From: Endomicrobiia bacterium
GTDB taxonomy: Bacteria; Elusimicrobiota; Endomicrobiia; DTEH01
Assembly (NCBI GenBank): GCA_039630545.1
Contig: JBCNUU010000004.1
Span: 1-64,000, forward strand
Direction of reading: 5' to 3'
DNA: 64,000 nt
Shown here: piece after piece, positions 39,784-56,170 of the stretch
How positions within the stretch are numbered: position 1 is the first letter of the stretch
Layout of the letters: every line of letters starts with the position of its first letter
The notes under the pieces: generated by a model
What the model was told of the DNA's origin: nothing
What the model saw: the letters and a program-made list of their open reading frames with translations, nothing else
Databases searched by the model: none
Translations under genes and position numbers: made by a program

Positions 39784-41323
39784 AATCCTCCACTCTTACT
39801 TCCCGTATAACCACTATCTTTATCTGCCCGGGATAATCCACTTCGTCTTCTATTTTTTTCGCAATATCCCTTGCTAAAATACTAACTTGTGAATCATTAA
39901 CTTTGTCCGATTCCACCAGTACTCTGAGTTCTCTTCCAGCGTAAATTGCATATGCATTTTCTACTCCTCTAAACGATTTAGCTATTTGTTCTATCTTTTC
40001 TACCCTCTTTATGTAATGTTCTACAGTATCTTGTCTTGCACCCGGTCTTGAAGCCGAAATAGCATCTGCTACTGATAAAATAAATGCTTCTAAACTTTGT
40101 GGTTCTGTAATCCCTTCATGATGTGATAAAATTGCATTTATCATTTTCTCTGATTCTCCATATTTTTTTGCTATATCAGCAGAAATTTGATGATGTGAAC
40201 CCTCAACTTCATGACTTACTGCTTTTCCTATATCATGTAACAATCCTGCTCTTTTACAAAAATTAACATCAGCTCCTAACTCACCAGCAATAGCTCCTGC
40301 AATTATAGCCACCTCTTTTGTATGCTGAAGCTGATTTTGCCCATAAGAAGTTCTAAATTTTAATTTTCCCAAAAGTTTAAGAATTTCGGGATCTAACCCA
40401 AAAATCCCTAACTCTATCGCCACATCTTCTCCTATTTTTTTAACATATTCTTCAAATTCTAACTTTGTTTTATTAACAATATCTTCAATTCTGGCTGGGT
40501 GAATTCTGCTGTCTTGTATAAGCTTTTCCATAGCAATCTTTGCTATTTCACGTCTTACAGGATCAAAAGAAGAAATTACCAACGTTTCCGGTGTATCATC
40601 TACTATTACATCTACACCTGTAAGTTGCTCAAAAACTCTGATATTTCTTCCTTCCCTTCCTATAATTCTCCCTTTCAACTCATCAGGTACAGAAATTATA
40701 GTAGTAGTATTATCAACAGCCACTTCAGAAGCTACTCTTTGCATAGCAGTAACTAATATTTCTTTGGCTTTCTTTTCTGCATTCTCTTTAAATTCATCTT
40801 CATATTTTTTAAGTTTTAAAGCAAATTCATTTTTAACATCTTCTTCTAAACTTTGAAGCAAAATTTTTTTTGCTTCCTCTTGAGTCAAACCAGAAATTTT
40901 TTCAAGGATTTGTCTTTGTTTTTCTTGTTGTTGTAAAAGATGCTTTTTTTCTTCTTCTAATTTCATATATTCCTGTCTTATTTTATTTTCTTTTTCGTAT
41001 AATTCTTTTGTCCTTTTATCTATAATTTCATATTTTCTATCTATAGTTTCTTCTTTACTTCTTAATTTTCTTTCCCATGCAAGAAGTTCCTGTCTGTGTT
41101 CTCTATTGATGCGCTCTAATTCATTTTTTTCTTTTTCTATAATGTATTTTGCTTCTTGCTTTGCTTTCCTTATTTCTTCATCATAAAACTTTTTTGCTTC
41201 TTCTATTATTTTTTTTGCTTGCATCTCTAAAGAATTAAGATTTTTTTTAGCATAAAGGTATCTTAATAAATAACCTAAAACAACTCCTGAAACTAAAAAT
41301 ATAATTACCATTAGCCAGTTCAT
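39773..41323 (-). CDS. rny: Ribonuclease Y
   Basis: N-terminal TM, coiled coil, KH domain ([13 protein letters not shown]), HD domain (LLHDIGK). Confidence 0.97.
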
Positions 41324-41351
41324 TTTAACAAATCTCCTTTCTTAATAAACT

Positions 41352-41924
41352 CTAAACTTTAATAAAATATGTTTCAGAAATTACATAATCAACATAAGTG
41401 TCAAACTTAGATACTGGCAAACAATCCAATATTTGAAAATCGTAACCAACACCACAACTTAAAGTCTTTGTTTTTTTTAATAGCTTATCATAATAACCTC
41501 CTCCGTACCCCAATCTATATCCTTTTTTATCAAAAGCTATACCTGGAACTAATATAAAATCAATGATTTCAAAAATATTTGGAATCTCACTATGTTGAGT
41601 TTCTTTTGGTTCATAGATACCAAATTTATTTTTAACAAATTCTCCATTATATTTTCTTATCAAAAGTTCCTTTTTTTCAAAATCTACTACAGGAAAAAAG
41701 AAATTTTTGCTTCTGTCATCCATCAATTTTAAGATGTTCACTTCTTTTTTAAAAGGGTAATAAATTAAAACATTTTTTGCTAATTTAAATCTCTCTAATT
41801 TAGCAATATTTTCAATAATTATTTGACTTTTTTTTTCTACTTCTTTCTCAGACAAACTTTCTCTTATTTCTAAAATTTTCTTTCTTAAAATTCGTTTTTT
41901 TTCTGTGATTTCATCTGTCGCCAT
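41352..41924 (-). CDS. 5-formyltetrahydrofolate cyclo-ligase (YgfA/Fau family)
   Basis: FGIYEP, VPGIAFD..GYRLGYGGGYYD. Confidence 0.94.
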   Translation of the reverse strand: MATDEITEKKRILRKKILEIRESLSEKEVEKKSQIIIENIAKLERFKLAKNVLIYYPFKKEVNILKLMDDRSKNFFFPVVDFEKKELLIRKYNGEFVKNKFGIYEPKETQHSEIPNIFEIIDFILVPGIAFDKKGYRLGYGGGYYDKLLKKTKTLSCGVGYDFQILDCLPVSKFDTYVDYVISETYFIKV

Positions 41925-43186
41925 TTCTCTAACCTTTGTTTTATTTCTTTTTCTTTACCTATATCTTTAGGAAAATAAAACCATTTGTCTATATTTATAT
42001 ATTTTTGTACAACAAAACCTTCTTTATAATCATGAGGATAAAGATAACCTTGACCATGTCCTAAAGATTTTTCATCTCTATGACCATCTTTAAGATGGTC
42101 AGGTACCTCTTCAATTACACCTTTATTTATTTCTTCTTTTACTTTATTTAAAGCCTCATAACTTGCATTTGACTTTTCAGCACAAGCTAAATAACACACA
42201 ACCTGCGCAAGAATTATCTCCATCTCAGGCATTCCTACAAATTCAGCAGCCTGCAAAGCCGATGTGCTTAAAACTAAAGCATACGGATCAGCGTTTCCTA
42301 TATCTTCCGAAGCTAAAATTACAAGTCTTCTTATTATATAGCGAGGATCTTCTCCTGACAACAGCATTTTTTCCATCCAGTAAAGTGCAGCATCTGGATC
42401 TGAACCACGAATAGATTTAATTAAAGCTGAAATATGGTCGTAGTGATAATCCGAGTTTTTATCATATCTAAATGACACAGAAGGAATACATTGTTTTATT
42501 ATATCTAAAGTTATTTTATTTTTATCTAAACCTATTAAATAAGAAGAAACTATATCTATAACATTTAGTGCCTTCCTTGCATCACCATCTGCATACTTTA
42601 TAATGTATTCTATAGCATCTGGTTCTATCATAAATTGATATTTACCCAACCCCTGCTCTTTATCAGAAAGAGCCTTATTTATAATAGTTTTTATATTTTC
42701 AGCAGAAAGTTTTTTAAACTCAGCAACAAATGATCTGGAAATCAAAGCCTGATTAACATAGTAATACGGGTTTTCTGTCGTTAAACCTATAAGTATAATG
42801 TTCCCATGCTCAATTTCTGGTAATAATATATCTTGCTGATATCTATTAAAATGATGGATTTCATCTAAAATTACAACTAATCTTTCATTATATGACTTAT
42901 ATCTATTTATCATTTCTTTCAATTCAGAAATACCTACTAAAGTAGCATTTGTTTCTAACACCTCTGCTTTTGTTTTTTTAGCAATAAGTTTTGCCAATGC
43001 TGTTTTGCCTGTCCCAGATGGTCCAAATAAAATTAAAGAGAAAAGTTTATCTTGTTCTATTAAATTTCTCAAAACGGAATTTTTACTTAAAAGATGCTCT
43101 TGACCTACAAATTCTTCAAAATCTTTGGGTAGAAGTTTGCTAGCTAAAGGTATATTTTTTTGTTTTTCAACATTAAATAGATTCAT
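41885..43186 (-). CDS. rarA: Replication-associated recombination protein A (MgsA/RarA AAA+ ATPase)
   Basis: GPSGTGKT, DEIH, TTENP, KSIRGSDPDAA, SEDIGNADP, YLYPHDY; start re-called to ATG 43186. Confidence 0.95.
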   Translation of the reverse strand: MNLFNVEKQKNIPLASKLLPKDFEEFVGQEHLLSKNSVLRNLIEQDKLFSLILFGPSGTGKTALAKLIAKKTKAEVLETNATLVGISELKEMINRYKSYNERLVVILDEIHHFNRYQQDILLPEIEHGNIILIGLTTENPYYYVNQALISRSFVAEFKKLSAENIKTIINKALSDKEQGLGKYQFMIEPDAIEYIIKYADGDARKALNVIDIVSSYLIGLDKNKITLDIIKQCIPSVSFRYDKNSDYHYDHISALIKSIRGSDPDAALYWMEKMLLSGEDPRYIIRRLVILASEDIGNADPYALVLSTSALQAAEFVGMPEMEIILAQVVCYLACAEKSNASYEALNKVKEEINKGVIEEVPDHLKDGHRDEKSLGHGQGYLYPHDYKEGFVVQKYINIDKWFYFPKDIGKEKEIKQRLEKWRQMKSQKKNEF

Positions 43187-43224
43187 AAAAATAAAAAACA
43201 TAAATTAAATTACAGTTTTTTTAG

Positions 43225-43263
43225 AATATATATAAAGGAGTGAAATTAGGAAAGTTTTATGGT
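43225..43263 (+). repeat. Inverted repeat arm downstream of zapA (partner 43577-43613)
   Basis: AATATATATAAAGGAGTgAAATTAGGAAAgTTTTATGGT equals the reverse complement of 43577-43613 except for two single-base insertions. Confidence 0.92.
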
Positions 43264-43269
43264 TAGAGC

Positions 43270-43581
43270 TTAATTAGTATTTTCTTTTAAATATTTATCT
43301 ATCTCTTCTATAAGAGAATTTATTTTAAGTTCTAAATTTATTAATTTCTCTTCAGCTTTTTTTTCTAAACTGAATTTTTCTTTTGCTATTTCTAAAGAAG
43401 TATATGCGTAACTTCTCATCGTATCAATTTGATGTTGTTTTACTTCATTTAACTTTTTGTTAACCTGATCTGCTACAAGTTCAAAAAACATTTTTTCTAC
43501 AGGAGATTTAATGTCTAAAAAAATTTCCTGTGTGCCTATTTTTACTGAAAATTTCTCAATAATTTCTTGTTTATTTACCAT
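43270..43581 (-). CDS. zapA: Cell division protein ZapA-like
   Basis: 103 aa, beta-beta-alpha then coiled coil (FSVKIGTQEI...VADQVNKKL...); context of ZapB-like gene upstream and cyclo-ligase/rny downstream. Confidence 0.7.
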   Translation of the reverse strand: MVNKQEIIEKFSVKIGTQEIFLDIKSPVEKMFFELVADQVNKKLNEVKQHQIDTMRSYAYTSLEIAKEKFSLEKKAEEKLINLELKINSLIEEIDKYLKENTN

Positions 43582-43613
43582 AAAATTTCCTAATTTACTC
43601 CTTTATATATATT
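43577..43613 (-). repeat. Inverted repeat arm covering the zapA 5' UTR, RBS and start codon
   Basis: Minus strand AATATATATAAAGGAGTAAATTAGGAAATTTTATGGT; contains AAGGAG and the ATG. Confidence 0.92.
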
Positions 43614-43619
43614 TTTTAA

Positions 43620-43648
43620 AATATATATTATTAAAACCCTAAAGTCAA
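43620..43648 (-). promoter_or_regulatory. Sigma70-type promoter for zapA (TTGACT-N17-TATATT)
   Basis: -35 at 43648-43643, -10 at 43625-43620, 17-nt spacer. Confidence 0.6.
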
Positions 43649-43665
43649 TATTTATAAAAACATTA

Positions 43666-43935
43666 CTATATTTCAGAAATTTTTTCTATCAATTTTTTAA
43701 TCTTCTGTTTAACAACACCTGTCTTTGACTGAAGATGCAAGTACTCTTTATAGAAACTTTGCAGCTTTTTATTTTCTTCTTTGAGAAGATTTATATCTTG
43801 ATTAAGACGTGTATTTTCTGCTTTAAGAAGTTCAATCTGCTTTACAAATTCTTTTATCTTCTTTTCTAACAATGAAATCTGACTTTCTAAATTTTCTAAT
43901 TTGTTTAACAGACTGCTATGATTTAACTGCTCCAT
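43666..43935 (-). CDS. Coiled-coil protein, ZapB-like
   Basis: 89 aa of continuous heptads (LENLESQISLLEKKI...LKAENTRL), directly upstream of zapA. Confidence 0.6.
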   Translation of the reverse strand: MEQLNHSSLLNKLENLESQISLLEKKIKEFVKQIELLKAENTRLNQDINLLKEENKKLQSFYKEYLHLQSKTGVVKQKIKKLIEKISEI

Positions 43936-44573
43936 TATTTATTTAAATTATATCCATATTCATCAAATAACAGTGACCTTCTTCTACATTTTGGGCATAA
44001 AATTTCATAAAGATTTTCTCTTTGAGCAAACTGGACAAACTTTTTAGGACTCACATATGAACCCATTTCTTCATTTATAATCTGTATTAAATTTATATTT
44101 CCAAATGCTTTATGACCAAGTTTTTTAACAATGTATAATAGATGCGATTTCGTAGAAATTATACTATTACAAAAAGAACATACTACTAACTGATGTTTTA
44201 TTTCTTGAGATTTAAGAGTTGCTCTATCTGTGGTAGCTAAATCAAACTCTTTTGACATTACAACACCGGGTATCTTTTCATTTCTTGTTGTGCAAATCCT
44301 CGCACATTGTCCACAAAAAACACACTCATCATAATACCAGATCAAAGTTCTTTGAGCAGTTAAAGCTTCTATTTCATCTTTAAGTTTAATTGCACCAGCA
44401 GGGCATACTTCAGCACAAGCACCACAACCAATACATCCATCCTGCGAAGGTTGGGGTTTCCCACGAAAACTTTCAGGAGGAGTATGAGGTTCAAAAGGAT
44501 ATTTTGTAGTAAAAGGTCCCTTTATTAACGCTTTTATTGCTTCTTTTAATTCTCTTAATTTTGGATATTTCAT
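43935..44573 (-). CDS. Hydrogenase 2x[4Fe-4S] subunit (NuoI/MbhN/HycF-like) with extra C-terminal Cys pairs
   Basis: T.KYPF...FRGKP, CIGCGACAEVCP, CVFCGQCARIC, CSFC...CPKC. Confidence 0.88.
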   Translation of the reverse strand: MKYPKLRELKEAIKALIKGPFTTKYPFEPHTPPESFRGKPQPSQDGCIGCGACAEVCPAGAIKLKDEIEALTAQRTLIWYYDECVFCGQCARICTTRNEKIPGVVMSKEFDLATTDRATLKSQEIKHQLVVCSFCNSIISTKSHLLYIVKKLGHKAFGNINLIQIINEEMGSYVSPKKFVQFAQRENLYEILCPKCRRRSLLFDEYGYNLNK

Positions 44574-44588
44574 TGGATTAAGTATATC

Positions 44589-44918
44589 CTAATTTTTATT
44601 TTTATATTCATCACATACTGAACTACTACACATCTTTACACCAGATTTATAAGCAGCTTTAGCTAATGCATGTGATGATACTGGAGAAGTCAAAAATACA
44701 AAAAACATTACCAACAAAGCTTTTAAAGCTAAATTTGTGAAAAACCCAGAGTAAACAAATATACCAAAAAATATACCACAAGTCCCCAAAGTTACACATT
44801 TAGTAGAAGCTTGTAATCTAGTATATACATCAGGAAATCTTACTAAACCTATACATCCAATGACGTCGGCTGTTATACCTATAGAGATTATTAAAAATCC
44901 TATTATTTCATTCATCAA
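44589..44918 (-). CDS. Mrp/Mbh subunit G (MnhG/MbhC)
   Basis: GLVRFPDVYTRLQASTK, TSPVSSHALAKAA. Confidence 0.9.
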   Translation of the reverse strand: MMNEIIGFLIISIGITADVIGCIGLVRFPDVYTRLQASTKCVTLGTCGIFFGIFVYSGFFTNLALKALLVMFFVFLTSPVSSHALAKAAYKSGVKMCSSSVCDEYKNKN

Positions 44919-45243
44919 ATCTTTTACCCTCCAAATATTTTGCTAACGCTAAATTTCCAATAAAAGATTGAAGCGCCCAGGCAATTGCTATGTCTATAAA
45001 AAATGAAGCTTTTGTAAAAATAGAAAGAATACCACAGATTCCAACTATAATAAGACCCAATATGTCCGTAGCAACAGCTCTATCTGCAGGAGTTGGACCT
45101 AAAAAGATTCTGTAAAGACACAAAATTAAACTCAAAATCATAGGAGATATAAATTTAAAAACTAAATCCATTTTAATCAATGCATTGATCACAATAAATC
45201 CAATTATGAGTAGTAATCCTAATATATATCTTGTTGTCCTCAT
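44908..45243 (-). CDS. Mrp/Mbh subunit F (MnhF/MbhB)
   Basis: YRIFLGPTPADRAVATD, FIGNLALAKYL. Confidence 0.9.
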   Translation of the reverse strand: MRTTRYILGLLLIIGFIVINALIKMDLVFKFISPMILSLILCLYRIFLGPTPADRAVATDILGLIIVGICGILSIFTKASFFIDIAIAWALQSFIGNLALAKYLEGKRFDE

Positions 45244-45249
45244 ATATAT

Positions 45250-45750
45250 TTAAGAAAAAATCTTTTCTAAAATATTCTCAAACTTTTTTACTATCCTTTT
45301 AGTCGCTTCTTCTGAATCCAAACTTCTTACATAAATCCAATGCACATATATATATCCATTTTCTCTATCCACATCAACACTTAAAGTTCCAGGCGTCAAA
45401 GTTATAGAGTTAGCAAGCATTGTCAATCCAGCATCTGATTTAAGCTTTGTTTTAACCTTTACAATACCTGGTTTTATTGGCATATCAGGTAGTATAATTC
45501 TATATGCTACATCGATATTTGCCTTTATTACTTCATATAAAAAAATTATAAAATAATAAATAAACCAAAGATATCTAACCGGTTTTTTGAAACTCCATTC
45601 ATTTTGAAGATTGATATCTCCAAATAATAAAACTATCAAAAAACTACATAGTATACCTACTAATATACTATATATATCAAAACCAGACAAAATAGACCAA
45701 ATTAAGAAAATAAACAAGAATAAAAAAACTCTATTATAGAGGTATTTCAT
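45250..45750 (-). CDS. Mrp/Mbh subunit E (MnhE/MbhA)
   Basis: KANIDVA, IKPGIV, LANSITLTPGT, YVHW. Confidence 0.92.
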   Translation of the reverse strand: MKYLYNRVFLFLFIFLIWSILSGFDIYSILVGILCSFLIVLLFGDINLQNEWSFKKPVRYLWFIYYFIIFLYEVIKANIDVAYRIILPDMPIKPGIVKVKTKLKSDAGLTMLANSITLTPGTLSVDVDRENGYIYVHWIYVRSLDSEEATKRIVKKFENILEKIFS

Positions 45751-47237
45751 TTTAGAATTGTCTTATAATAAAGCGAACCTTCATATATTGTACTTTTAAT
45801 TTTAGAAAGTAACAAATCATTTATGTTTGGATATAGCAATATACCTAAAATAATACATAAAATAGCAAGTGACAACATAGAAAATTGCATAGGAAAAGGA
45901 ACCTCTTTTTTATTTTCACTGAATTTAGTATTATCCTCAATACTATAAAATCCATATTTCAATACTTTCAGAAAACTTGCTAAAGTTAAAACACTTACCG
46001 CAACCGCAACTATAGCAGCTAAAATATTTTTTGTTTCTATACAAGCAACAATAATTAGCAACTTAGACCAAAAACCATTAAAAGGAGGAACTCCTGCTAT
46101 TGATAAACTCCCAACTACTGCTGAAAATGTAGTATTTGGCATTATTTTATTTACACAACAATATTTTTTAAGGTCCCGTGTATAAAAATTGTATTCTAAA
46201 GCTCCACTAGTTAAAAAAAGTAAAGACTTAAAAATAGAATGATTCAACATATGAAACATTCCTCCTACTATTCCTGTTGGAGATCCTAATCCGATCCCGA
46301 GCAACATATATCCCACCTGACTTATTGAATGATAAGCAAGCAATCTTTTGTAATCCCATTGATATAGGGCTAGAATTACTCCAATTATCATTGACAAAAT
46401 CCCAAGATAAAAAATTATATTCAATATCTCCTGATTTTTAGGAAATACGTTAAAAATGAACCTTACTATTAGATATATACCAAGTGTTTTTATAAGAACT
46501 CCTGACAACATTGCAGAAATTGGAGCAGGAGCAGAAGGATGTGCATCTGGTAACCACCAGTGAAAAGGTACTACTGCAGCTTTTACACTAAAACCTATAA
46601 TGAATAAAAAAAGAATAATTTTGAGTATAAAACTTCTATCAAACTCTATTGTTTTAGCTATATCTGCTAAGTTAAGAGTAGATGTATAACTGTAAGTCAA
46701 AACTATTCCCAGCAAAATCAATCCTGTAGAGATAGAACCTAAAATTATATATTTAAAAGATGCCTCTAATTCGTCTTTACCTATACCATAAGCAACCAAA
46801 GCATAAGAAGAAATTGAAGCTATTTCTAAAAACACAAATATATTGAATAAATCACCACTTATTATTACTCCATTCATACCTGCAATCATAAGCTCAAACA
46901 AAGAATAAAATCCCCAACTTTCAGTATAACTTTTCATATAAGAGATCGAATATATTCCTACAAAAAATCCTACAACATTTACTAACAAAAGCATAAATAC
47001 AGTCAATGAGTCCATTACAAGAGTTATTCCATATGGTATAACCCATCCCCCAACTTGGTACACCAAAGTTATATTTTCTGATGTGTTGATATAAAATAAA
47101 CTTACAAAACTCAAAACAACAAGTAAAAAATTAACTATATTGATAAAGATCTCAGAAAAATTTTTAACAAATCTCCCTAATAGTGAGTTAATAAAAACAC
47201 CTAATAATGGCAAAATTACAAAAAATGTTATTATCAT
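45747..47237 (-). CDS. Antiporter-like subunit (MnhD/MbhH)
   Basis: GDLFNIFVFLEI, EASFKY, PFHWWLPDAHPSAPAPISAMLSG, KRLLAYHSISQ, GVPPFNGFWSK. Confidence 0.92.
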   Translation of the reverse strand: MIITFFVILPLLGVFINSLLGRFVKNFSEIFINIVNFLLVVLSFVSLFYINTSENITLVYQVGGWVIPYGITLVMDSLTVFMLLLVNVVGFFVGIYSISYMKSYTESWGFYSLFELMIAGMNGVIISGDLFNIFVFLEIASISSYALVAYGIGKDELEASFKYIILGSISTGLILLGIVLTYSYTSTLNLADIAKTIEFDRSFILKIILFLFIIGFSVKAAVVPFHWWLPDAHPSAPAPISAMLSGVLIKTLGIYLIVRFIFNVFPKNQEILNIIFYLGILSMIIGVILALYQWDYKRLLAYHSISQVGYMLLGIGLGSPTGIVGGMFHMLNHSIFKSLLFLTSGALEYNFYTRDLKKYCCVNKIMPNTTFSAVVGSLSIAGVPPFNGFWSKLLIIVACIETKNILAAIVAVAVSVLTLASFLKVLKYGFYSIEDNTKFSENKKEVPFPMQFSMLSLAILCIILGILLYPNINDLLLSKIKSTIYEGSLYYKTILK

Positions 47238-47244
47238 AGAAAAT

Positions 47245-47586
47245 TTAACCTTTTAAATTTTTAATTTCTGTAATATCAAATGTCTTATGTTTTTCATAAA
47301 TACGTAAAGCAATAGCAACCATTAAAATAGTTACAGAGAGTCCTATTACTATAGAGGTTAAAACTAATGCCTGCGGAACAGGATCTACCATTGGTTGCGT
47401 AGTTGAGTGAGTTTTTAAAAATATTGGGAAAATACCATCTTTTCTATATCCTACTACTATAAAGAACAAGTTAAGGGAGTTGTCCATTATAATAAAAGAA
47501 ATTATTATTTTTAACAAATTTTTTTTAGTTATTAAACCATATAGTCCAACAAAAAACATTGTTAAACACAAAACATATACTAACAT
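47245..47586 (-). CDS. Mrp/Mbh subunit C (MnhC/MbhG)
   Basis: KKNLLKII, VDPVPQALVLTSIVIG. Confidence 0.92.
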   Translation of the reverse strand: MLVYVLCLTMFFVGLYGLITKKNLLKIIISFIIMDNSLNLFFIVVGYRKDGIFPIFLKTHSTTQPMVDPVPQALVLTSIVIGLSVTILMVAIALRIYEKHKTFDITEIKNLKG

Positions 47587-47588
47587 AT

Positions 47589-48041
47589 TTACTCTCCCTT
47601 ATGTAAAGAAAAAAGAATAAGACACAAAAATGCACTAAGCATACCAAAACCAACCTTAAGCATAATAGCAACATTAGCAGGCAAAATAATTCCACCAGAA
47701 AACAAACTAAAAATTTTACCCTGCCCTAAAAAGTCTTTAAAAAAAATACCAGTAGCAAATCCTAAAATCGCTATAGATAAAAACATCAAACCCCCTGTTG
47801 TTTCTAAAATGGAAGCTAAATACTCATTAATCCTTCTTACTACAAAATCTTTACCATAAGCAAGAATAATATGGATAAAAGACAAAACAACAATCACACC
47901 ACCCGCAAAACCACCACCTGGACCAAGATGCCCAAAAAATGTTATATATAAACCATATAAAATAATCAATAAAATTGTCCATCTTGTAACAGTTTTTACT
48001 ATTAAAGACATTCCTGAATTATTTTTACTATTCTTTTTCAT
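47589..48041 (-). CDS. Mrp/Mbh subunit B (MnhB/MbhF)
   Basis: GHLGPGGGFAGG; start re-called to ATG 48041. Confidence 0.9.
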   Translation of the reverse strand: MKKNSKNNSGMSLIVKTVTRWTILLIILYGLYITFFGHLGPGGGFAGGVIVVLSFIHIILAYGKDFVVRRINEYLASILETTGGLMFLSIAILGFATGIFFKDFLGQGKIFSLFSGGIILPANVAIMLKVGFGMLSAFLCLILFSLHKGE

Positions 48042-48555
48042 TAGATTTACCAATTTTTCTTAGAATTAATACAGCACCTAAAATTGCTGTAAATAAAACT
48101 ACAACTTCCCCTAATGTATCATAAGCTCTATAATTTAAAATTATCGCCGAAACTACATCCACAGCACCAGTATCTTTTATAGTATTATTAACATAATATT
48201 CAGCCAATTTATATTTAGGCTTTCCAAAAGAAGGAAGATCCTTAAATGAGAACCCTACAATAGTTAAAAATACAAAAACAAAAAATATTATAGGTAGTCT
48301 TAAGAAAAAACTCTTTTTATTATAAATCGTTTCATCTCTTACAACAGTCGCTCTTATTAATATTACTAAAGACAAAATTTCAACTACAAATTGAACTATA
48401 GCAACATCAGGTGCTTGAAGTAATAAAAACAAAAGCGTTAAAATCAATCCTACTGCTCCTAAGCTTACAACTGAAGAAAGTAAATCTTTTATCTCTAAAG
48501 ATATTATAGCAGCAATTATCATTAAAAATATAAGAAGTGTAATAATGCCTTCCAT
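48028..48555 (-). CDS. MbhD-MbhE-like fusion (DUF4040 + MrpA C-terminal-like segment)
   Basis: LQAPDVAIVQFVVE and VVSAIILNYRAYDTLGEVVVL. Confidence 0.85.
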   Translation of the reverse strand: MEGIITLLIFLMIIAAIISLEIKDLLSSVVSLGAVGLILTLLFLLLQAPDVAIVQFVVEILSLVILIRATVVRDETIYNKKSFFLRLPIIFFVFVFLTIVGFSFKDLPSFGKPKYKLAEYYVNNTIKDTGAVDVVSAIILNYRAYDTLGEVVVLFTAILGAVLILRKIGKSNEKE

Positions 48556-48562
48556 AAATTAA

Positions 48563-50437
48563 TTAAAATATAAACAATATAATTAAAATTAAAATTCCTA
48601 AAAAAACCCAAGAAATATACGAATGCAAGTTCCCATTATGTAATTTTGACAAAAAATCACCAGTTTTAAAAATAAGTTTTTTCCCAAGCAGATATACATC
48701 TAAAAATTCTAATTGAATTACTGTTTTCACTAACGAAGCTAATAAAGATAAAATACCGTAGAACCAATTATAAAAATCTAATAATCTTTGTTGTGCAAAG
48801 TTATATAAAATATAAAAAGGATATGTTTCAACAATTGTAAGATAAAAATCTGTTGCAGGTATGGTGGTGTTATTTAATTTATTCTCTTCGCCTAACATAT
48901 ATACTTTTACTTTTCGTGGTTTATCTACAAATAGCATATAGATTAAACTGCCAATAATAAGACCTGTTATTAAAAGATAAAAAGCTACTTTTGCATTCCA
49001 TTCACCTGACAATTTAAAACTATAAATATTAACCATTTTACTAACTAAACTTATAGGAACTTCATAAGCAAAAACTCCAAATATTACACATAATATAGAT
49101 AACATTCCCATAGATAAAATACAGTTAAATTTTTCTATTTTTCTAGGTGAAATTTCATTTTTTTGTGTTCCAGAAAGAAATAATGAATGGAGCACTTTTA
49201 CAAAAGATGCTAAAGTCAAAGCACTTCCGAATATTGCACTTATTAATACAAACATGACAACAACTGATTTCGTAGAACCAATACTTAAAATAAGAGATTG
49301 GTATATCATCCATTTAGATACAAAACCATTAAAAGGTGGTATTCCTGCAATAGATACCGCAGCTATTAAAGTAAACAAAAAAGTGTACGGTAAAACTTTA
49401 GATAAGTTTTTAGGTTTAGAAAGTTCTACATCTTCAGCATTTTTTTCTACCATATCCGCAGATAGAAAAAGTAATGTTTTATATATTATATTATTTATCA
49501 TGTGAAAAACTCCAGCAATCATACCTATAGTAGTGCCAGTAGAAATACCTACTATCATATATCCAACTTGAGATATCGCATGATAGGACAAAAGCTTTTT
49601 CAAATTGTGTTGGTGTAAAGCCATAAAAACAGCAATTAGTATAGTTAACGCCCCTAAAAACATTAAAAATAAATGAGTTTTTAATACAAATATATCTTTT
49701 GTTACTCTTACAAACCAATAAATACCTATTATTTTATCTATAGCACCAACAACATAAGCTGAAACATTTGCAGGTAAGCTGCAGGAAGCTTCTGGTATCC
49801 AGTTGTGAAAAGGAACACTTCCTAATTTGCCTAAAGCCGCTATTATTAATAGAGTAAAAATAAGAGAATTATTTGTTACATCTAAGTTAAAACTTTCTGT
49901 TAATATATATCTTCCTGTTTTAACAATTAACAAAATAATACCTACAAAAAGACAAAAATCAGTTATAGCAATTGTTACTAGTGACTTTGTAGCTACCTTA
50001 TAGTTATCTTCTTGTGTAACGAATCTTATCATTAAATAAATTATTAATCCTAAAATTTCCCATGATATCAAAATTATTAGTAGATTTTTCGAAAAAATAA
50101 GTAGATTAGAAAAAGAAAGTATAAGGAATATAAAAGAAAAGTATGTGTTTTCTTTTCCATATGAAACTAATTCTTTAGAAAAAATAACAATAATAAATGT
50201 AAAGAAACAACATAAGATCACATTTATTGTAGAAGTAAGATCATTCGATAAAGCAATATCAAATTGTTTAACCCAAGGTAAAACAATTTCGTATTTTGAA
50301 AATAATAAATAAAAAGCACTCACCAAGCATAAAAATGAACCAACAACACTTATCCAGTAATTTTTTGTTTTTTTAAAAAACAAATTAAGTACACCTAAAG
50401 TCAAGGGTAACAAAATTGTCAATAATAAGTAGTTCAT
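48563..50437 (-). CDS. Antiporter-like subunit (NuoL/HyfB-like, long C-terminal arm)
   Basis: WEILG, PFHNWIPEA, LKKLLSYHAISQVGY, GIPPFNGFVSKW; C-terminal SKLHNGNLHSY plus TM. Confidence 0.88.
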   Translation of the reverse strand: MNYLLLTILLPLTLGVLNLFFKKTKNYWISVVGSFLCLVSAFYLLFSKYEIVLPWVKQFDIALSNDLTSTINVILCCFFTFIIVIFSKELVSYGKENTYFSFIFLILSFSNLLIFSKNLLIILISWEILGLIIYLMIRFVTQEDNYKVATKSLVTIAITDFCLFVGIILLIVKTGRYILTESFNLDVTNNSLIFTLLIIAALGKLGSVPFHNWIPEASCSLPANVSAYVVGAIDKIIGIYWFVRVTKDIFVLKTHLFLMFLGALTILIAVFMALHQHNLKKLLSYHAISQVGYMIVGISTGTTIGMIAGVFHMINNIIYKTLLFLSADMVEKNAEDVELSKPKNLSKVLPYTFLFTLIAAVSIAGIPPFNGFVSKWMIYQSLILSIGSTKSVVVMFVLISAIFGSALTLASFVKVLHSLFLSGTQKNEISPRKIEKFNCILSMGMLSILCVIFGVFAYEVPISLVSKMVNIYSFKLSGEWNAKVAFYLLITGLIIGSLIYMLFVDKPRKVKVYMLGEENKLNNTTIPATDFYLTIVETYPFYILYNFAQQRLLDFYNWFYGILSLLASLVKTVIQLEFLDVYLLGKKLIFKTGDFLSKLHNGNLHSYISWVFLGILILIILFIF

Positions 50438-50441
50438 ACTA

Positions 50442-51839
50442 TTAAATTTTAATTAACTTTAAAATCATTTCTGGAAATAATCCAACCACTACAGAAAAAA
50501 GTGTAAGCAAGACAATCACCAAAACCATAGATAATGTTTTTTCTTTAATCTCAAATTTTTTCTTACCCAAGAATACAGAGTTGTACAATCTCATCAAATA
50601 TAGCAGAGTTAAAATTGAACCTGCAACAGCTACAAAAGCTACAAAAATTCTCTGTGTCTCTAAAGCACCTTTTAATATAAAAAATTTACCCCAGAATCCA
50701 CTGAAAATAGGAAAACCTATTATTGAAAAACTACATATTAAAAAACAAATAGAAGTTACAGGCATTGTTTGGATTAATCCACCTAATTTACTAATATCTC
50801 TTTCATTTACATTATGTTCTACTATACCCGCTGATAAAAATAGTCCTGCTTTAGATAAAGCATGACTTAAAATATAAAATATAGCTCCTTTAATACTATC
50901 TGTTATATTTATTACAAAACCTAAAAATACATAACTCAACTGAGATATAGTAGAATACGCTAAAATTCTTTTAATATCTGTCTCAATCAAAGCCATAAAA
51001 CCTGCTATTAATATTGTTGACAAAAATATAACAAGTGTAAATTCCTGAAATCTCTGTGAAATTTCAAAAGTAAAGTTAAAGATTCTACCAAAACTATATA
51101 TTCCAATTTTAACTAAAACAGCTGCATGTAATAATGCCGTTACAGGTGTAGGAGCAACTCCTGCTTCAGGTAGCCACACATGAAAAGGAAACTGTGCAGA
51201 TTTAGCTATCATTCCTGATAGCAAAAATAAAGCTGTTGTATCAGAAATTTGTTTATTTTTTAGTTCATAAATATTTGCACTACCATATTCTACATAAAGT
51301 ATACAAATTCCAACTAACATCAAAGCTGAACCCAAAAGGGTCATAAGAAAAGATTTATTTGCTTTAGATAAATGTACATTTCCTCTATAAAAACCTATCA
51401 GCTGCCATGAACAAATAGATGTCAGTTCCCAACAAATATACATAATTATAAGGTTTCCACTAAAAGTTAAACCTAACATTGAAGTTACAAATAATGTAAC
51501 ATAAAAATAGTATATGCTTTGATTTTCATAATGTGACATATAATCAAATGAATAAATAACTATTAATGTGGCTATTATAATTGAAGTTAATGCCATTATT
51601 AAAGCATAACTATCTAATATAAATATATCCCAATTTTTAAATTTTAACATTAAAAAATCACTTTCTATATTGGAAAAATATCTAAACGACAAACTGATTA
51701 TTCCAAATAGTCCCAAAACCAAAGCTATCAAAGAGGAAATTCTTGAGATTTTTTCATAAGTTGAAATTCTGGCTAAAAAAGTTCCAACTAATAAAACACT
51801 AAAAGAAAATAAAATTATAAAACTATTTGTAATAATCAT
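50442..51839 (-). CDS. Antiporter-like subunit (NuoL/MrpA core, no C-terminal arm)
   Basis: WELTSICSWQLIGF, AKSAQFPFHVWLPEA..APTPVTALLHAA, DIKRILAYSTISQ. Confidence 0.9.
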   Translation of the reverse strand: MIITNSFIILFSFSVLLVGTFLARISTYEKISRISSLIALVLGLFGIISLSFRYFSNIESDFLMLKFKNWDIFILDSYALIMALTSIIIATLIVIYSFDYMSHYENQSIYYFYVTLFVTSMLGLTFSGNLIIMYICWELTSICSWQLIGFYRGNVHLSKANKSFLMTLLGSALMLVGICILYVEYGSANIYELKNKQISDTTALFLLSGMIAKSAQFPFHVWLPEAGVAPTPVTALLHAAVLVKIGIYSFGRIFNFTFEISQRFQEFTLVIFLSTILIAGFMALIETDIKRILAYSTISQLSYVFLGFVINITDSIKGAIFYILSHALSKAGLFLSAGIVEHNVNERDISKLGGLIQTMPVTSICFLICSFSIIGFPIFSGFWGKFFILKGALETQRIFVAFVAVAGSILTLLYLMRLYNSVFLGKKKFEIKEKTLSMVLVIVLLTLFSVVVGLFPEMILKLIKI

Positions 51840-53020
51840 ATATGTTTTTTAATCCACTCCGTTTTTTGTTGAGATAACTTAATTAAATCATTCCATGTTA
51901 AAATTTCTTTTTTAGTATTTACATCTATAGCAACGGTTCTTTCTGTACAACAATAACACGGATCTACAGAAGCTAAGGTAATGGCAGCATCAGAGATTGT
52001 TTGTCCTACAGCTGCAACTTTATTTGAAGCTATATTTACATAAGACGGAGCACGAATTTTATGTCTTACGGGTCTATTGGAACCATCTGACCTTATATAG
52101 TGGAAAACTTCTCCACGCGGAGCTTCGTGTCTGCCTATCCCTTCACCTGGTGGTATAAAGTCAACCTTAACTTCAATATTACCTTCTGGTTCTTTTTTTA
52201 ATTTATCTAAACATTGTTTTATTATTCTAATAGATTCATACATTTCAAGAATTCTAATTACTGCCTTGTCAAAAACATCTCCATTATACAACACAGGCAC
52301 ATTAAATTGAACCTCTCCATATGCTGCATAAGGATCGTCTCGCCTTACATCTATATCTATACCACTTGCACGGGCAGTTGGGCCTACAACACAGTATTTA
52401 ATAGCATCCTCTTTGGTAAGTACTCCAACACCCTTAAGGCGCGCATGAATTACAGGGTCATCCATTACAGCACCTTTAAACATATCAACTACAGGAACTA
52501 AATCATCACACATTTTCTCTATTTGTGGTATTATCTCTTTCGGTATATCTTTTCTTACACCTCCAACTTTAAACATAGAATAGTGTTGCCGATTACCAGA
52601 AATAACTTCTAATATATCACAAACATTCTCCCTATATTTCCACGACCACATCCAGATGGTGTTGTAACCAATAAAATGTCCTGCTAAACCAAGCCATAAT
52701 AAGTGTGAATGTAATCTTTCAAGTTCTCCTATTGTACTTCTTATATATTTTGCTCTGGTTGGAATATCAATACCAAGTAAATCCTCCACAGCATTAACAT
52801 ATGCAAAAGGATGACTTGTAGAACATATACCACAAATACGTTCAACTAAAAATGTAACTTGGTCATAATGTTTTGTAGTAGAAAGCTGTTCAACACCACG
52901 ATGGTTATAACCAATCTCAATTTCAATATCTACAACTTTTTCACCGTCAACATATAACTTGAAAAATTCAGGTTCTTCCTGTAGTGGATGGTAAGGACCT
53001 ATCGGTATTATTTTTTTCAT
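51836..53020 (-). CDS. Group 4 [NiFe]-hydrogenase large subunit (MbhL/EchE/HycE-like)
   Basis: IGPYHP, GYNHRGVE, L1 ERICGIC, EAPRGE, L2 DPCYCCTER followed by a 33-aa extension. Confidence 0.92.
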   Translation of the reverse strand: MKKIIPIGPYHPLQEEPEFFKLYVDGEKVVDIEIEIGYNHRGVEQLSTTKHYDQVTFLVERICGICSTSHPFAYVNAVEDLLGIDIPTRAKYIRSTIGELERLHSHLLWLGLAGHFIGYNTIWMWSWKYRENVCDILEVISGNRQHYSMFKVGGVRKDIPKEIIPQIEKMCDDLVPVVDMFKGAVMDDPVIHARLKGVGVLTKEDAIKYCVVGPTARASGIDIDVRRDDPYAAYGEVQFNVPVLYNGDVFDKAVIRILEMYESIRIIKQCLDKLKKEPEGNIEVKVDFIPPGEGIGRHEAPRGEVFHYIRSDGSNRPVRHKIRAPSYVNIASNKVAAVGQTISDAAITLASVDPCYCCTERTVAIDVNTKKEILTWNDLIKLSQQKTEWIKKHI

Positions 53021-53460
53021 ATAACATCCTCTCTTAGAGGATATTTACCCTCTGGCCAATCTTCAGGTAATAATAGATGCTTAAGATTAGGATGACCTAT
53101 GAAGTTTACTCCTACCATCTCCCATATTTCTCTTTCTATCCACTCAGCAGCAGAAAAAACTTTTGTTAAACTTTCTATTTCAGGTTGATTTTTATCAAGC
53201 TTTACTTTTAAAGACACTATCTCTCCTGTTTTGTCATAACTAAAGTGATAAAGTATTTCTATATTATTTTCACAATCTATCCCTGTTGCCGTAGAAAATC
53301 TAAAACCAAAGTCTTCAAATAAAACTTTAACACATTCTATAATATTCTGTTTATTGATTTCTATATAATACCTTTTGTCATTTTTCCTAAAAAAATCCAC
53401 AATTTTATCTTTAAGTTTATTTTTTACTTCATCAATTATTTTTTCTTTCATATTCATCAA
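53017..53460 (-). CDS. Hydrogenase subunit NuoC/MbhK-like
   Basis: ILYHFS, AEWIEREIWEMVGVNFIGHP, PEDWPEGKYPLR. Confidence 0.9.
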   Translation of the reverse strand: MMNMKEKIIDEVKNKLKDKIVDFFRKNDKRYYIEINKQNIIECVKVLFEDFGFRFSTATGIDCENNIEILYHFSYDKTGEIVSLKVKLDKNQPEIESLTKVFSAAEWIEREIWEMVGVNFIGHPNLKHLLLPEDWPEGKYPLREDVI

Positions 53461-53894
53461 AGATAAGTTGTTATTTTTTTTCTTAATGTATCAATTAACT
53501 TTACAATACCACCAATTATAGCTTCTGGTTTTGGTGGACATCCAGGAATATATGCTGAAACAGGGACAATCTCATCAACATTACATGGAGTATTAAAAGA
53601 ATCTTTAAAAACACCTCTACCGCACGCACAAGTTCCAACTGCTACCACAAAACAAGGTTTGGGTGTTTGTTCATATAAGTACTTTAATTTTTGCCAGTTT
53701 TTATAATTAGGCACGCCTGTAACCAGTAGTATATCGGCATGTCTAATAGAACCAACTAACTGAATACCAAATCTTTCTAAATCGTATCTGGGCGTTAATG
53801 TATCTAATATTTCTATATCACAATTGTTACATGGAGATAAAGGTAAATGAAAAACCCACAATGATTTTAAAAGAGACTTTTTAATCAAACCCAT
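53457..53894 (-). CDS. Group 4 hydrogenase small subunit (NuoB/MbhJ-like)
   Basis: CNNCDIE, RHADILLVTG, GTCA, PGCPPKPE; start re-called to ATG 53894. Confidence 0.92.
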   Translation of the reverse strand: MGLIKKSLLKSLWVFHLPLSPCNNCDIEILDTLTPRYDLERFGIQLVGSIRHADILLVTGVPNYKNWQKLKYLYEQTPKPCFVVAVGTCACGRGVFKDSFNTPCNVDEIVPVSAYIPGCPPKPEAIIGGIVKLIDTLRKKITTYL

Positions 53895-53912
53895 CTTTTT
53901 ATTCCACAAGTT

Positions 53913-54824
53913 TTATTTAAAACTTATTTTAAAAATTAAAGAAAGAATTGAATTCAACAAACTAATAGGAAAAATCCAGAACCAGAAAAACTTTAAAACT
54001 TGATCAATTTTTAACCTGGGATTTGTATTTTTGATCATTATGATTATTATCAAAACTAATAAATATTCAATAAAAAACAATATTAAGTTTCTACCACCAT
54101 TAAAGTATAACAACACTAAAAACGCAGGCACAATTGATAACAAAATTTGTTTTGTTAACTTTATCAATCCTAATAACAAACCAGAATATTCTATTAAAAT
54201 ACCTCCTGCTAACTCAGTCTCTGCCTCTTGAGCATCAAATGGAACAAAATTTAACTTAGCATGTAATATAATTAATGTAATAAGAAACGATATAAAACTA
54301 AATACGGTTAGATAATTATTTTGCATTATATCTAACAATTTTATACTCTTAGATTGAATAATCGGCACTAACAAAGATGTAATAAATGGCAACTCATAAG
54401 ATAAAAGCATTTTCATTTCTCTTGCAACACCTACAGAAGCTATAGCATTACCAGAAGAAGAAGCTCCTAGTATTAACATTAAAGATGGTATAGTCATAAT
54501 ATATATCAAAACAATGATATCACCCACAAAACTTTTTTTAAAGAATATAACCAACCATAAAATTGTAGCAGATAATATTATACAAGCAAAGCTTATAAAT
54601 GGTGCTATCAAAAACATAAAATTTGCATTTTCAGGAATAGTAACTTCTTTTAATAAGAGTTTAAAAAAGTCATATAAATTCTGCATAATAGAAGGTCCTT
54701 TTCTATATTGCAGTCTCGCTGTAAGTTTTCTATCTATATATCCCACAAATATTGACAAAACAAAAGAAAAAAGAAATCCCGGAAAAACAATATAAAAAAA
54801 TAATGAATTTATTATTTCAGTCAT
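53913..54824 (-). CDS. Membrane anchor subunit NuoH/MbhM/HyfC-like
   Basis: DRKLTARLQYRKGP, DFFKLLLKE, PFDAQEAETELAGG..EYSG, NPRLKIDQ. Confidence 0.92.
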   Translation of the reverse strand: MTEIINSLFFYIVFPGFLFSFVLSIFVGYIDRKLTARLQYRKGPSIMQNLYDFFKLLLKEVTIPENANFMFLIAPFISFACIILSATILWLVIFFKKSFVGDIIVLIYIMTIPSLMLILGASSSGNAIASVGVAREMKMLLSYELPFITSLLVPIIQSKSIKLLDIMQNNYLTVFSFISFLITLIILHAKLNFVPFDAQEAETELAGGILIEYSGLLLGLIKLTKQILLSIVPAFLVLLYFNGGRNLILFFIEYLLVLIIIIMIKNTNPRLKIDQVLKFFWFWIFPISLLNSILSLIFKISFK

Positions 54825-54827
54825 GGG

Positions 54828-55343
54828 TTATTCATTAACTATCCATTTAATAACTTTAACAACAAGATTCTGGTTTATTTCATAGATATTTTCTTTTTCG
54901 TTTGGCAATATTTCTGTATATTTTATAGCCCCTTCAGGACAGGTAACACTGCACACTGGTGGATTTTCCTCAGAAGCTCTACTGAGACAGAAATCACATT
55001 GAGAACTCTTATATTCTAATACATCTTTATAAATTGTACCAAATGGACAAGCTACTAAACAACTTTTACACGATGTACATTTAAATAAACTTCTGTGTAA
55101 AATTCCATCTTTATCTTTAAACAAAGCTTCATTAGGACAACTGTTTATACAAAAAGCATCTTCACATTTTCTACAGATAAAATATTGCAAAATTTTTGAA
55201 AAAAATTTTTCAAATCCTCTATTTAACGATTTCTCTTTAGGAAGATCTCTATAAAAATGAGAATGTTTATAAAAATATGAACATTCAGCTTTACATTCTT
55301 TGCAACTATAACACTTTTCTATATCTACAAAAATTCTTTTCAT
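54828..55343 (-). CDS. Multi-[4Fe-4S] electron-transfer protein (HycB/HydN/CooF-like)
   Basis: CYSCKEC, CRKCEDAFCINSCP, CTSCKSCLVACP, CDFC...CSVTCP. Confidence 0.88.
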   Translation of the reverse strand: MKRIFVDIEKCYSCKECKAECSYFYKHSHFYRDLPKEKSLNRGFEKFFSKILQYFICRKCEDAFCINSCPNEALFKDKDGILHRSLFKCTSCKSCLVACPFGTIYKDVLEYKSSQCDFCLSRASEENPPVCSVTCPEGAIKYTEILPNEKENIYEINQNLVVKVIKWIVNE

Positions 55344-55348
55344 TTTTA

Positions 55349-56170
55349 TTATTCAAATGGTTCAGGTATATCCTTAATTTGTTCCCAACTAAAAACAGGA
55401 CCATCTTTGCAAATAAAATAACTTCCAATCTGACAATGTCCACATTTTCCTAACCCGCAACTCATATTTCTTTCCATTGAGAGATATATTTGGTGAGGTT
55501 TAAATTTCATATCTATAAGTTTAAGAGTCGTAAATTTCATCATTACAGGAGGACCACATACTACAGCCACTGAGTTTCCAACATCTACTTTCACCTTATC
55601 TAAAAGACAGGTAACCACACCTACCGTCTCATTCCATTCACCAGGTTGACACTTATCCACTGAACGAAGAATCTCCAATCTTTCAATTTTGGACCATTCA
55701 GGAAAAAGATATTTATAAACAATATCTTGTGGAGTTCTTGCTCCATAACATAGTATTATTTTTTTAAATTCATTTATTCTTTCAAACAAAGTAAACAACA
55801 GAGATCTCAAAGGAGCAAGTCCAACACCACCACCTATTATCAATACTTCTTTACCTTTAAAACTATCCACAGGATATCCCTTCCCATAAGGACCTCTTAT
55901 TCCTACAATCTCACCTTCTTTCATAGAATGTAAAACTTCTGTCATTCTTCCAACACGCATAATTGTAACATCTATTGTCTCAGTTTTATAAGGAGAAGAA
56001 GAAGGAGTAAATGGCGCTTCTCCAACTCCATACACTGTAAGTTCTATAAATTGTCCTGTCTCAAATGAAAATTTATCACCATTTAATGGTTTAAGCGTAA
56101 AAGTTTTTATATTTGAAGTTTCCTGGATGATTTTAATAATTTTAAAATTTTTGGGTCGATATATATTCAT
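55349..56170 (-). CDS. FAD/NAD(P)-binding [2Fe-2S] oxidoreductase (AsrB/HydG/PyrK-like)
   Basis: GQF...GEAPF, RGPYG, GGGVGLAP, CGPPVMM, ERNMSCGLGKCGHC...CKDGPVF. Confidence 0.92.
   Translation of the reverse strand: MNIYRPKNFKIIKIIQETSNIKTFTLKPLNGDKFSFETGQFIELTVYGVGEAPFTPSSSPYKTETIDVTIMRVGRMTEVLHSMKEGEIVGIRGPYGKGYPVDSFKGKEVLIIGGGVGLAPLRSLLFTLFERINEFKKIILCYGARTPQDIVYKYLFPEWSKIERLEILRSVDKCQPGEWNETVGVVTCLLDKVKVDVGNSVAVVCGPPVMMKFTTLKLIDMKFKPHQIYLSMERNMSCGLGKCGHCQIGSYFICKDGPVFSWEQIKDIPEPFE

Follow-up and report, generated by a model that had tools for sequence, protein, structure and literature searches.

The zapA-like gene of an Endomicrobiia bacterium is enclosed by a long inverted repeat, one arm of which covers the translation initiation region of the gene and the other of which starts a few nucleotides past its stop codon. 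Comparison of related loci indicates that the complementarity of the two arms is under selection, and the helix is restricted to one order of the Endomicrobiia. We propose that the arms pair in cis within the zapA mRNA, shutting the initiation region in a helix and so controlling translation and/or RNase III processing, a reading that we consider probable. The stretch of DNA that was analysed as a whole, here called the window, comprises 64 kb (positions 1-64,000 of contig JBCNUU010000004.1, assembly GCA_039630545.1), and the feature lies on its minus strand (Table 1).

Table 1. Features of the zapA locus in the 64-kb window, in the direction of transcription
Feature	Positions	Strand	Remarks
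zapB-like coiled-coil ORF, 89 aa, upstream of zapA	43935-43666	minus	Pfam ZapB 32.9 bits, cut-off 31.5
Predicted sigma-70-type promoter TTGACT-N17-TATATT	43648-43620	minus	10/12 consensus matches; prediction only; predicted +1 at ~43613
5' arm of closing helix	43613-43577	minus	37 nt; purine-rich; contains AAGGAG, AGGAAA (likely SD) and ATG
zapA-like ORF, 103 aa	43581-43270	minus	Loop of the helix
3' arm of closing helix	43263-43225	minus	39 nt; pyrimidine-rich, anti-SD-like
zapA-rarA spacer	43269-43202	minus	Only the 3' arm and short flanks
rarA/mgsA, gene downstream of zapA	43201-41885	minus	

Re-read on the minus strand, the arms are exact reverse complements over 37 positions, all of them Watson-Crick pairs, and the only extra bases are two single C's in the 3' arm (43254 and 43242), which divide the pairing into 9, 11 and 17 bp from the ORF side outward. 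These coordinates agree with a preliminary description of the locus, which had reported a reverse complement of this length with two single-base insertions and had correctly placed AAGGAG and the ATG (43581-43579) in the 5' arm. The 5' arm starts at the seventh base past the predicted promoter. The stop codon TAA is found at 43272-43270 and the 3' arm starts 6 nt beyond it, again as first described. The ungapped pieces of the arms were recovered as inverted repeats by a repeat search of the window. An RNA fold had been suggested as a check, and in the minimum-energy fold of 43625-43215 (minus strand) the arms indeed form the closing helix. This fold has an energy of -88 kcal/mol (z = -8.46), which was reached by none of 100 shuffled sequences. 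The duplex between the arms alone has a predicted energy of -43.6 kcal/mol, compared with -11.5 ± 2.6 kcal/mol in 200 shuffles of the 3' flank (z = -12.4).

The repeat is neither a product of chance or of assembly nor a multicopy element. Spaced inverted repeats were collected across the whole genome (1,604,573 bases with 29.4% G+C) from a 12-mer seed at a spacing of 100-3000 nt. Among the 2264 clusters obtained, the zapA repeat took rank 2 and was the first of those outside CRISPR arrays; ranks 1, 3, 4 and 7 among the top seven clusters lie inside such arrays. The zapA locus is carried by hot-spring metagenomes, with no RNA run among the matching runs for 42900-44000, and it is collinear in three contigs (two samples of one study, one of them possibly the source assembly), with no joints and with one SNP outside the feature. 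The possibility raised at the outset, that the repeat is an assembly artefact, is thereby dismissed. When the whole genome was searched with the region, only three short and weak matches were found besides the arms (81-91% identity, about 30-60 nt, E = 1.5e-5 to 6.3e-4). A MITE or another transposon would be expected in further copies; no second copy of the unit was found, and a mobile element was rejected because the repeat is single-copy.

All genes around the helix point in the same direction, in the minus-strand order fer4, zapB, zapA, rarA, 5-formyl-THF cyclo-ligase and rny. With 23.7 bits against a cut-off of 23.8, the 103-aa ORF is a borderline match to Pfam ZapA. We nevertheless take it as ZapA-like because all six aligned orthologues match ZapA at E ≤ 0.01 and because the gene order, with its conserved zapB-zapA-rarA synteny, fits. 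A search of solved structures with the ZapA alignment as profile returned no ZapA chain and one weak, unrelated match (E = 0.026). No terminator-like site was found in 43000-44000, neither between the arms nor ahead of rarA, and rarA has no recognisable SD. RNase Y is encoded by rny, three genes downstream of zapA, and the genome also carries an RNase III gene (PF14622, 127.9 bits).

The host's order is represented in the genome collection by 10 genomes from one family and three genera, all of which have a zapA orthologue. A metagenome scan added 10 loci. After removal of exact duplicates over flanks and coding sequence (L027 = L026, L030 = L029, L033 = L009, L034 = L032 and L035 = L014; L020-L025 repeat genome loci), 15 distinct loci were left, namely those of the 10 genomes and of 5 metagenome contigs. 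When the region from -45 to +15 of the zapA start was paired with the 60 nt past the stop codon by RNAduplex, a duplex was predicted in 15 of 15 loci, with energies of -24.5 to -43.6 kcal/mol and z-values of -3.7 to -12.4 (200 shuffles each). In every locus the 5' arm overlaps the initiation window (-20 to +12), with spans ranging from -44..-8 to -8..+12; the distance from the stop codon to the start of the 3' arm is -3 to +12 nt in 14 loci and 33 nt in the remaining one, L015. The length of the helix varies from about 18 to 45 bp, and L009 and L015 have only 18 contiguous base pairs.

The sequence of the arms differs between lineages. A core motif, ATTAGG(G)AA, is common within the genus of the window. 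L015 and L016, which represent the two other genera, lack this motif and pair through arms of unrelated sequence, which take in the start codon and the initial codons of the ORF; the ZapA proteins of the three genera are only 42-50% identical. Over the 15 loci, cognate arms reach a mean duplex energy of -31.9 kcal/mol against -18.3 kcal/mol (sd 5.7) for non-cognate combinations, and the cognate combination is the strongest one in 13 of 15 rows (5' arms) and in 11 of 15 columns. Matching changes are also seen at short distance. Compared with its nearest relative (ZapA 87% identical), the window genome has an extra A in the 5' arm and a corresponding extra T in the 3' arm, and opposite one of its bulged C's in the comparison the relative has a C that is paired. 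Lineage-specific extensions of the helix reach into the stop codon in L014 and L028/29. Thus, covariation of the arms, which the preliminary description had named as a check, is borne out in that complementarity is retained in all 15 distinct loci as the sequence changes. The regular bulged C's, which had been read there as a sign of an RNA helix, are confined to the window genome and not conserved.

For the 13 loci of the window's genus, RNAalifold was applied to a MAFFT alignment based on sequence only (L015 and L016 were left out as unalignable); it recovered the long-range helix between columns 38-49 and 400-411 with changes on both sides at 6 of 11 pairs. Formal counts were made for this 11-bp core in the same 13 loci, where matched indels shift the register and lower the figures. 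Of 143 cells, 91.6% are paired (82.8% in shuffles), double-change cells number 19 (8.7 in shuffles) and the covariation score is 0.431 (0.269 in shuffles), values that were each reached by 0 of 500 shuffles; since the sequences are related, these statistics are inflated and overstate independence. Sliding the partner columns by 1-3 positions reduced pairing to 37-71% (maximum 70.6%). Two further measures were not significant, namely the number of double-change pairs (6 vs 4.4; reached by 68 of 500 shuffles) and of further pair types (12 vs 11.9; 341 of 500). Upstream of the arm, a promoter with a -35 element TTGAC(A/T) or TTGATT and a -10 element TAnnnT is predicted in aligned position in 13 of 13 genus loci. 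The earlier proposal that the arm begins at the predicted +1 therefore stands for the window's genus and fails for the two other genera, in which zapA follows zapB by about 21-27 nt and has no promoter of its own, with the pairing still present.

Sister families of the same class retain the order zapB-zapA-rarA, and the same duplex test showed that the arm pairing is absent from all 20 of their zapA-like ORFs (z = -1.4 to +1.2, mean 0.02). Their zapA-rarA gap measures 133-269 nt and is filled by a 6S RNA gene of about 160 nt, compared with a gap of only about 60-100 nt (an estimate) in the host's order. The Rfam model RF00013 matches L017-L019 and 19 of 31 genomes outside the order, and in 15 of these 19 the match lies directly upstream of rarA. 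From the 19 sequences we built a class-specific 6S model, R1, which contains only 14 base pairs because the consensus fold retained the closing stem alone. R1 finds a 6S RNA between zapA and rarA in 19 of 20 sister loci, four of them weakly (20-44 bits), and misses L074. Within the host's order RF00013 matched none of the 10 genomes, and an Rfam scan of 41000-46000 gave nothing at E ≤ 10. R1 found no 6S RNA at the 10 zapA loci of the order, the best score with filters off being 13 bits, which is not proof of absence; a whole-genome search with R1 gave nothing convincing (best hit E = 0.012, 23.8 bits, 89 nt).

An array zapB-zapA-ssrS is known from beta- and gamma-proteobacteria, as reported in the consulted part of a published study (PMC7641849). 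The gene order is the same there, with the difference that in the host's order the slot holds the 3' arm only. From the occurrence of the array in these proteobacteria we conclude that the 3' arm occupies the ancestral ssrS slot. That this arm sits where relatives have a 6S RNA gene had been missed in the preliminary description. Presence of the helix and absence of the 6S gene from the zapA-rarA gap coincide in one clade; this coincidence amounts to a single evolutionary event, and we therefore make no causal claim. The helix itself was also considered as a 6S RNA and rejected, as it matches neither model, has no large central bubble and contains bulges of only 1 nt.

In the mechanism that we favour, the zapA initiation region would supply the 5' half of the helix through its purine-rich leader and SD-like motifs, joined in most lineages by the start codon, and the 3' half would be a pyrimidine-rich, anti-SD-like segment a few nucleotides past the stop codon. 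Once the 3' arm is transcribed and no ribosome is on the initiation region, the stem would close with the whole ORF as its loop and hide the RBS. The closed duplex of about 18-45 bp would be a potential substrate of RNase III, with both ends protected, and cleavage by this enzyme is plausible. ZapA synthesis would then be low and tightly limited, proceeding only from mRNAs that are still being transcribed or are occupied by ribosomes. Where zapA closely follows zapB, as it does in two genera, the helix could be opened by ribosomes that complete zapB, as in classical translational coupling. As a predicted promoter lies just upstream of the arm in 13/13 genus loci, the helix would begin at the 5' end of the transcript and would shield that end. 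We infer RNA pairing, translational repression, involvement of RNase III and the transcript boundaries; what is observed is the complementarity of the arms, with its conservation and covariation, its place at the start and stop codons and its confinement to one order.

The predicted unpaired probability of the region -15 to +5 is 0.46 at 37 °C and 0.76 at 70 °C without the 3' flank, and 0.22 and 0.38, respectively, once this flank is added. Even at 70 °C duplex formation is predicted to be favourable (mean -12.9 kcal/mol), so that the length of the helix would not be excessive in a hot-spring organism. Five loci (L009, L014, L026, L028 and L029) have the conserved purine motif 12-17 nt away from the start codon, beyond the canonical SD distance, and a helix that ends at -5 to -10. 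Occlusion would be partial in these loci, whose predicted unpaired probability is 0.17-0.40 at 37 °C.

A more speculative extension starts from the inner end of the helix, where the start codon would be brought together with the nucleotides that follow the stop codon. Each terminating ribosome would therefore melt the pairs that hide the start site, and would do so while held beside that start. A translated message would stay open and might reload its own ribosomes, and an idle message would shut and be silenced or cut. Such a bacterial closed-loop mRNA, with an on/off memory residing in the single molecule, is in our opinion a doubtful proposition; if true, it would provide a dose-sensitive division protein with a memory at the mRNA level. 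We rate lower still a bolder version, in which the closed RNA, along with the slot of the 6S gene, also inherited some function of 6S RNA.

Several other explanations were weighed against translational control by the helix. The strongest competitor keeps the RNA helix but assigns it to processing and end protection in place of repression: RNase III would cut the helix within a zapB-zapA-rarA transcript and separate zapA from rarA, leaving base-paired, stable ends and replacing the job done in sister families by excision of the 6S RNA. The long co-directional gene string without a terminator-like site, the presence of the helix in the two genera whose zapA has no own promoter, a duplex that in most loci is long enough for RNase III, the RNase III gene of the genome and the occurrence of the helix exactly in the order that lacks the 6S gene in the zapA-rarA gap would all suit such a role. 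However, the SD or the start codon consistently lies in the helix, so that a cut would damage the message and not mature it, and in L009 and L015 only 18 contiguous base pairs would be available. On balance we regard this explanation as unlikely, albeit worth keeping in mind. A role of the 3' arm in the expression of the next gene is a much weaker candidate. The arm lies about 25-60 nt upstream of rarA, which has no recognisable SD, and as a part of the rarA leader it might, by pairing in cis or between molecules, tie rarA expression to the translation of zapA, possibly because the helix promotes termination or decay ahead of rarA when zapA is untranslated. Against this stand the lack of a consistent U-tract past the helix and of a terminator-like site, and by eye the 3' arm shows no complementarity to the start region of rarA; such a control of rarA appears very improbable to us. 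The same lack of a consistent U-tract led us to reject a long-range intrinsic terminator.

It is difficult to tell from the pairs themselves whether the complementarity acts in RNA or in DNA. Over the 15 loci, the 429 predicted pairs comprise 424 of Watson-Crick type and 5 G.U pairs, sense and antisense duplexes hardly differ in stability, and in a looser arm-to-arm alignment the A.C mismatches of the sense strand (13) outnumber G.U pairs (5). Pairing that is almost purely Watson-Crick, with more A.C than G.U, therefore carries no mark of sense RNA over antisense RNA or DNA. Such pairing is what a function in DNA would leave, be it as an invertible segment, as inverted protein-binding sites or as an inverted duplication kept by gene conversion from arm to arm. 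Gene conversion would likewise produce the same insertion in both arms, as seen in comparison with the nearest relative, and the core motif shared within the genus could also be a DNA signal. Yet the orientation of zapB-zapA-rarA is constant, with no inversion in 15 loci, and the inverted joint was found in none of three contigs, which may hide rare forms. None of the 30 products of neighbouring ORFs (30.6-56.2 kb) belongs to a recombinase family. The two other genera pair with unrelated sequence in which the core motif is missing, bulges and internal loops that conversion would erase persist between close relatives (L012 and L013), and RecA would make poor use of arms that are 18-40 bp long and carry indels. 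We therefore judge a DNA-level role improbable, in line with the preliminary description, in which an invertible segment had already been the less favoured alternative. The positions of the arms, the pairing without a shared motif, the lack of an intervening terminator and the persisting internal loops together favour a role at the RNA level. Least probable of all seems a neutral relic, i.e. an inverted copy of the zapA leader that was left without present function by the rearrangement that removed the 6S gene. The coincidence of the helix with the absence of the 6S gene at the locus in one clade would fit, but a relic would decay, and the pairing has survived in three genera whose ZapA proteins have diverged widely and whose arm sequences are entirely different.

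Three further identities were considered for the unit and rejected. A type I toxin fold-back unit does not agree with a ZapA-like ORF, and no plus-strand promoter was called beside the 3' arm. An archaeal-type bulge-helix-bulge or circularisation motif would not fit the bulges, which are non-conserved single nucleotides confined to one strand. On the plus strand, the mirrored RBS and ATG would open a mini-ORF of 4 codons, which is not conserved in the nearest relative and for which no promoter was called.

Long-range pairing of transcript flanks has precedents. In type I toxin mRNAs such as hok and aapA, the two ends of the full-length transcript pair in a closing helix that keeps it untranslatable outside special windows. 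The zapA locus differs from these: it encodes neither a toxin nor an antisense RNA, and nothing points to an activating trimming of the 3' end. In the RNase III stalks of 16S and 23S rRNA, a functional unit is bracketed by flanks that pair across hundreds to thousands of nucleotides; the zapA stalk, in contrast, encloses a protein-coding ORF including its initiation region. Also related are long-range pairing of the RBS with anti-SD-like sequences and ORF-centred mRNA structure. The likeness to hok and aapA had been pointed out in the preliminary description and is upheld, with the correction that analogues other than toxins, icaR and hbs, are in print.

The icaR mRNA of Staphylococcus aureus is described, in the part of the source consulted, as carrying a UCCCCUG motif in its pyrimidine-rich 3'-UTR that pairs with its own SD region, hinders initiation and forms a double-stranded stretch that serves RNase III as a substrate (PMC3868564). 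It shares with zapA a 3' segment complementary to the SD or initiation region of the same gene, which in zapA is found in 15/15 loci. As far as this source goes, the icaR motif is short and lies in a long 3'-UTR, whereas the zapA helix of 18-45 bp starts about 12 nt or less past the stop codon and encloses the whole ORF; moreover, the predicted zapA helix is conserved across an order with the backing of covariation and concerns a cell-division gene. In the hbs mRNA of Bacillus subtilis, a long-range pairing of 14 bp between the 5'- and 3'-UTR is reported to modulate the access of ribonuclease (PMC5737220). The two cases share a short mRNA and long-range pairing between its ends. However, according to the same partial account, what the hbs pairing covers is a leader site for RNase Y and not the RBS, and its effect is protection, not silencing; the zapA helix is 2-3 times longer. 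A recent preprint (Gill et al. 2025, PMC12697547) states, in its consulted sections, that pyrimidine-rich, anti-SD-like sequences located hundreds of nucleotides away bind the RBS in vivo, favouring decay and preventing initiation, and that long-range sequences of this kind are depleted from natural genes. At zapA, in contrast to that depletion, such a sequence is positively maintained.

The literature searched yielded only few natural bacterial mRNAs that control themselves by pairing of their 5' and 3' ends, namely icaR, hbs and the type I toxins, and the abstracts on these pairings do not report phylogenetic covariation. No paper was found that links zapA to a long-range stem at the RBS, and among papers on zapA with 6S RNA or ssrS none deals with a closing helix of zapA. 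Judged by the sources as far as consulted, the zapA helix differs from known end pairings in its length, in the clasp that it forms at start and stop codons, in its order-wide covariation and in its location in a former 6S slot.

In conclusion, the zapA repeat is genuine, conserved and under selection. It is most likely a new form of mRNA self-control by pairing of the 5' and 3' ends, and we regard it as a candidate for a new cis-regulatory RNA family. The locus combines a long helix enclosing an ORF and co-varying arms in an uncultured order of Elusimicrobiota with a clean negative control in the sister families. With about 390 nt including the promoter, it offers a compact system for testing the interplay of long-range RBS occlusion, ribosome traffic and RNase III. 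The position of the helix in the 6S slot raises the question of what became of 6S RNA in this order, and whether the linkage of zapA with ssrS imposed a need that the helix now fills.

In the window's genus alone, zapB and zapA are separated by 85-160 nt that include a conserved promoter; in the order's two remaining genera (L015, L016) and in the sister families (L017-L019), zapA lies 9-27 nt after zapB. On the other side of zapA, the zapA-rarA gap corresponds in position to the slot that holds a 6S RNA gene in the sister families (L017-L019, L073-L092). There a class-specific model, built from 6S RNA sequences of genomes outside the order, detected this gene between zapA and rarA at 19 of 20 loci. 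All 10 genomes of the window's order were negative for 6S RNA with both RF00013, the Rfam 6S RNA model, and the class-specific model. Immediately upstream of fer4-zapB and co-directional with the zapA string lies a complete hydrogenase-like gene cluster of the membrane-bound Mrp/Mbh type, which includes antiporter subunits, a NiFe hydrogenase domain and complex I-like 49-kDa, 30-kDa and 20-kDa subunits.

On small contigs of the organism's own genome (G000) that consist of CRISPR arrays, single arrays contain pairs of mutually reverse-complementary spacers, as if one target had been acquired in both orientations. After the zapA repeat, the next-strongest spaced inverted repeats of G000 outside CRISPR arrays are heavily interrupted and reach about -41 kcal/mol.

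Two ATG codons are candidate starts of rarA, which is not preceded by a recognisable Shine-Dalgarno sequence, a lack that is common to the relatives as well. Just 3' of the 3' arm, the downstream half of the long-range helix enclosing zapA, lies the 20-nt string AAAAAACTGTAATTTAATTT, of which the own genome contains exactly one further occurrence. This second copy sits immediately 3' of a 110-aa ORF's stop codon and, as judged by eye, adjoins the end of a putative tRNA gene. The string may serve as a promoter or 3'-end element.

Coordinates of the features around zapA (window) and elsewhere in G000
Feature	Location	Strand
zapB-zapA spacer	window 43582-43665	
zapA-rarA gap	window 43202-43269	
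AAAAAACTGTAATTTAATTT	window 43202-43221	minus
AAAAAACTGTAATTTAATTT, second copy	L004 ~1503-1522 (G000 C12, ~121.8 kb)	
Region without a recognisable Shine-Dalgarno sequence	window 43186-43224	
Candidate rarA ATG starts	window 43201, 43186	
Mrp/Mbh-type cluster	window 44589-56170	minus
CRISPR-array stretches with reverse-complementary spacers (outside window)	G000 C18 (542-1897), C10 (1624-2356), C29 (220-439), C21 (1293-1513), C19 (275-1836)	
Non-CRISPR spaced inverted repeats (outside window)	G000 C34:123088-123741, C77:5513-6225
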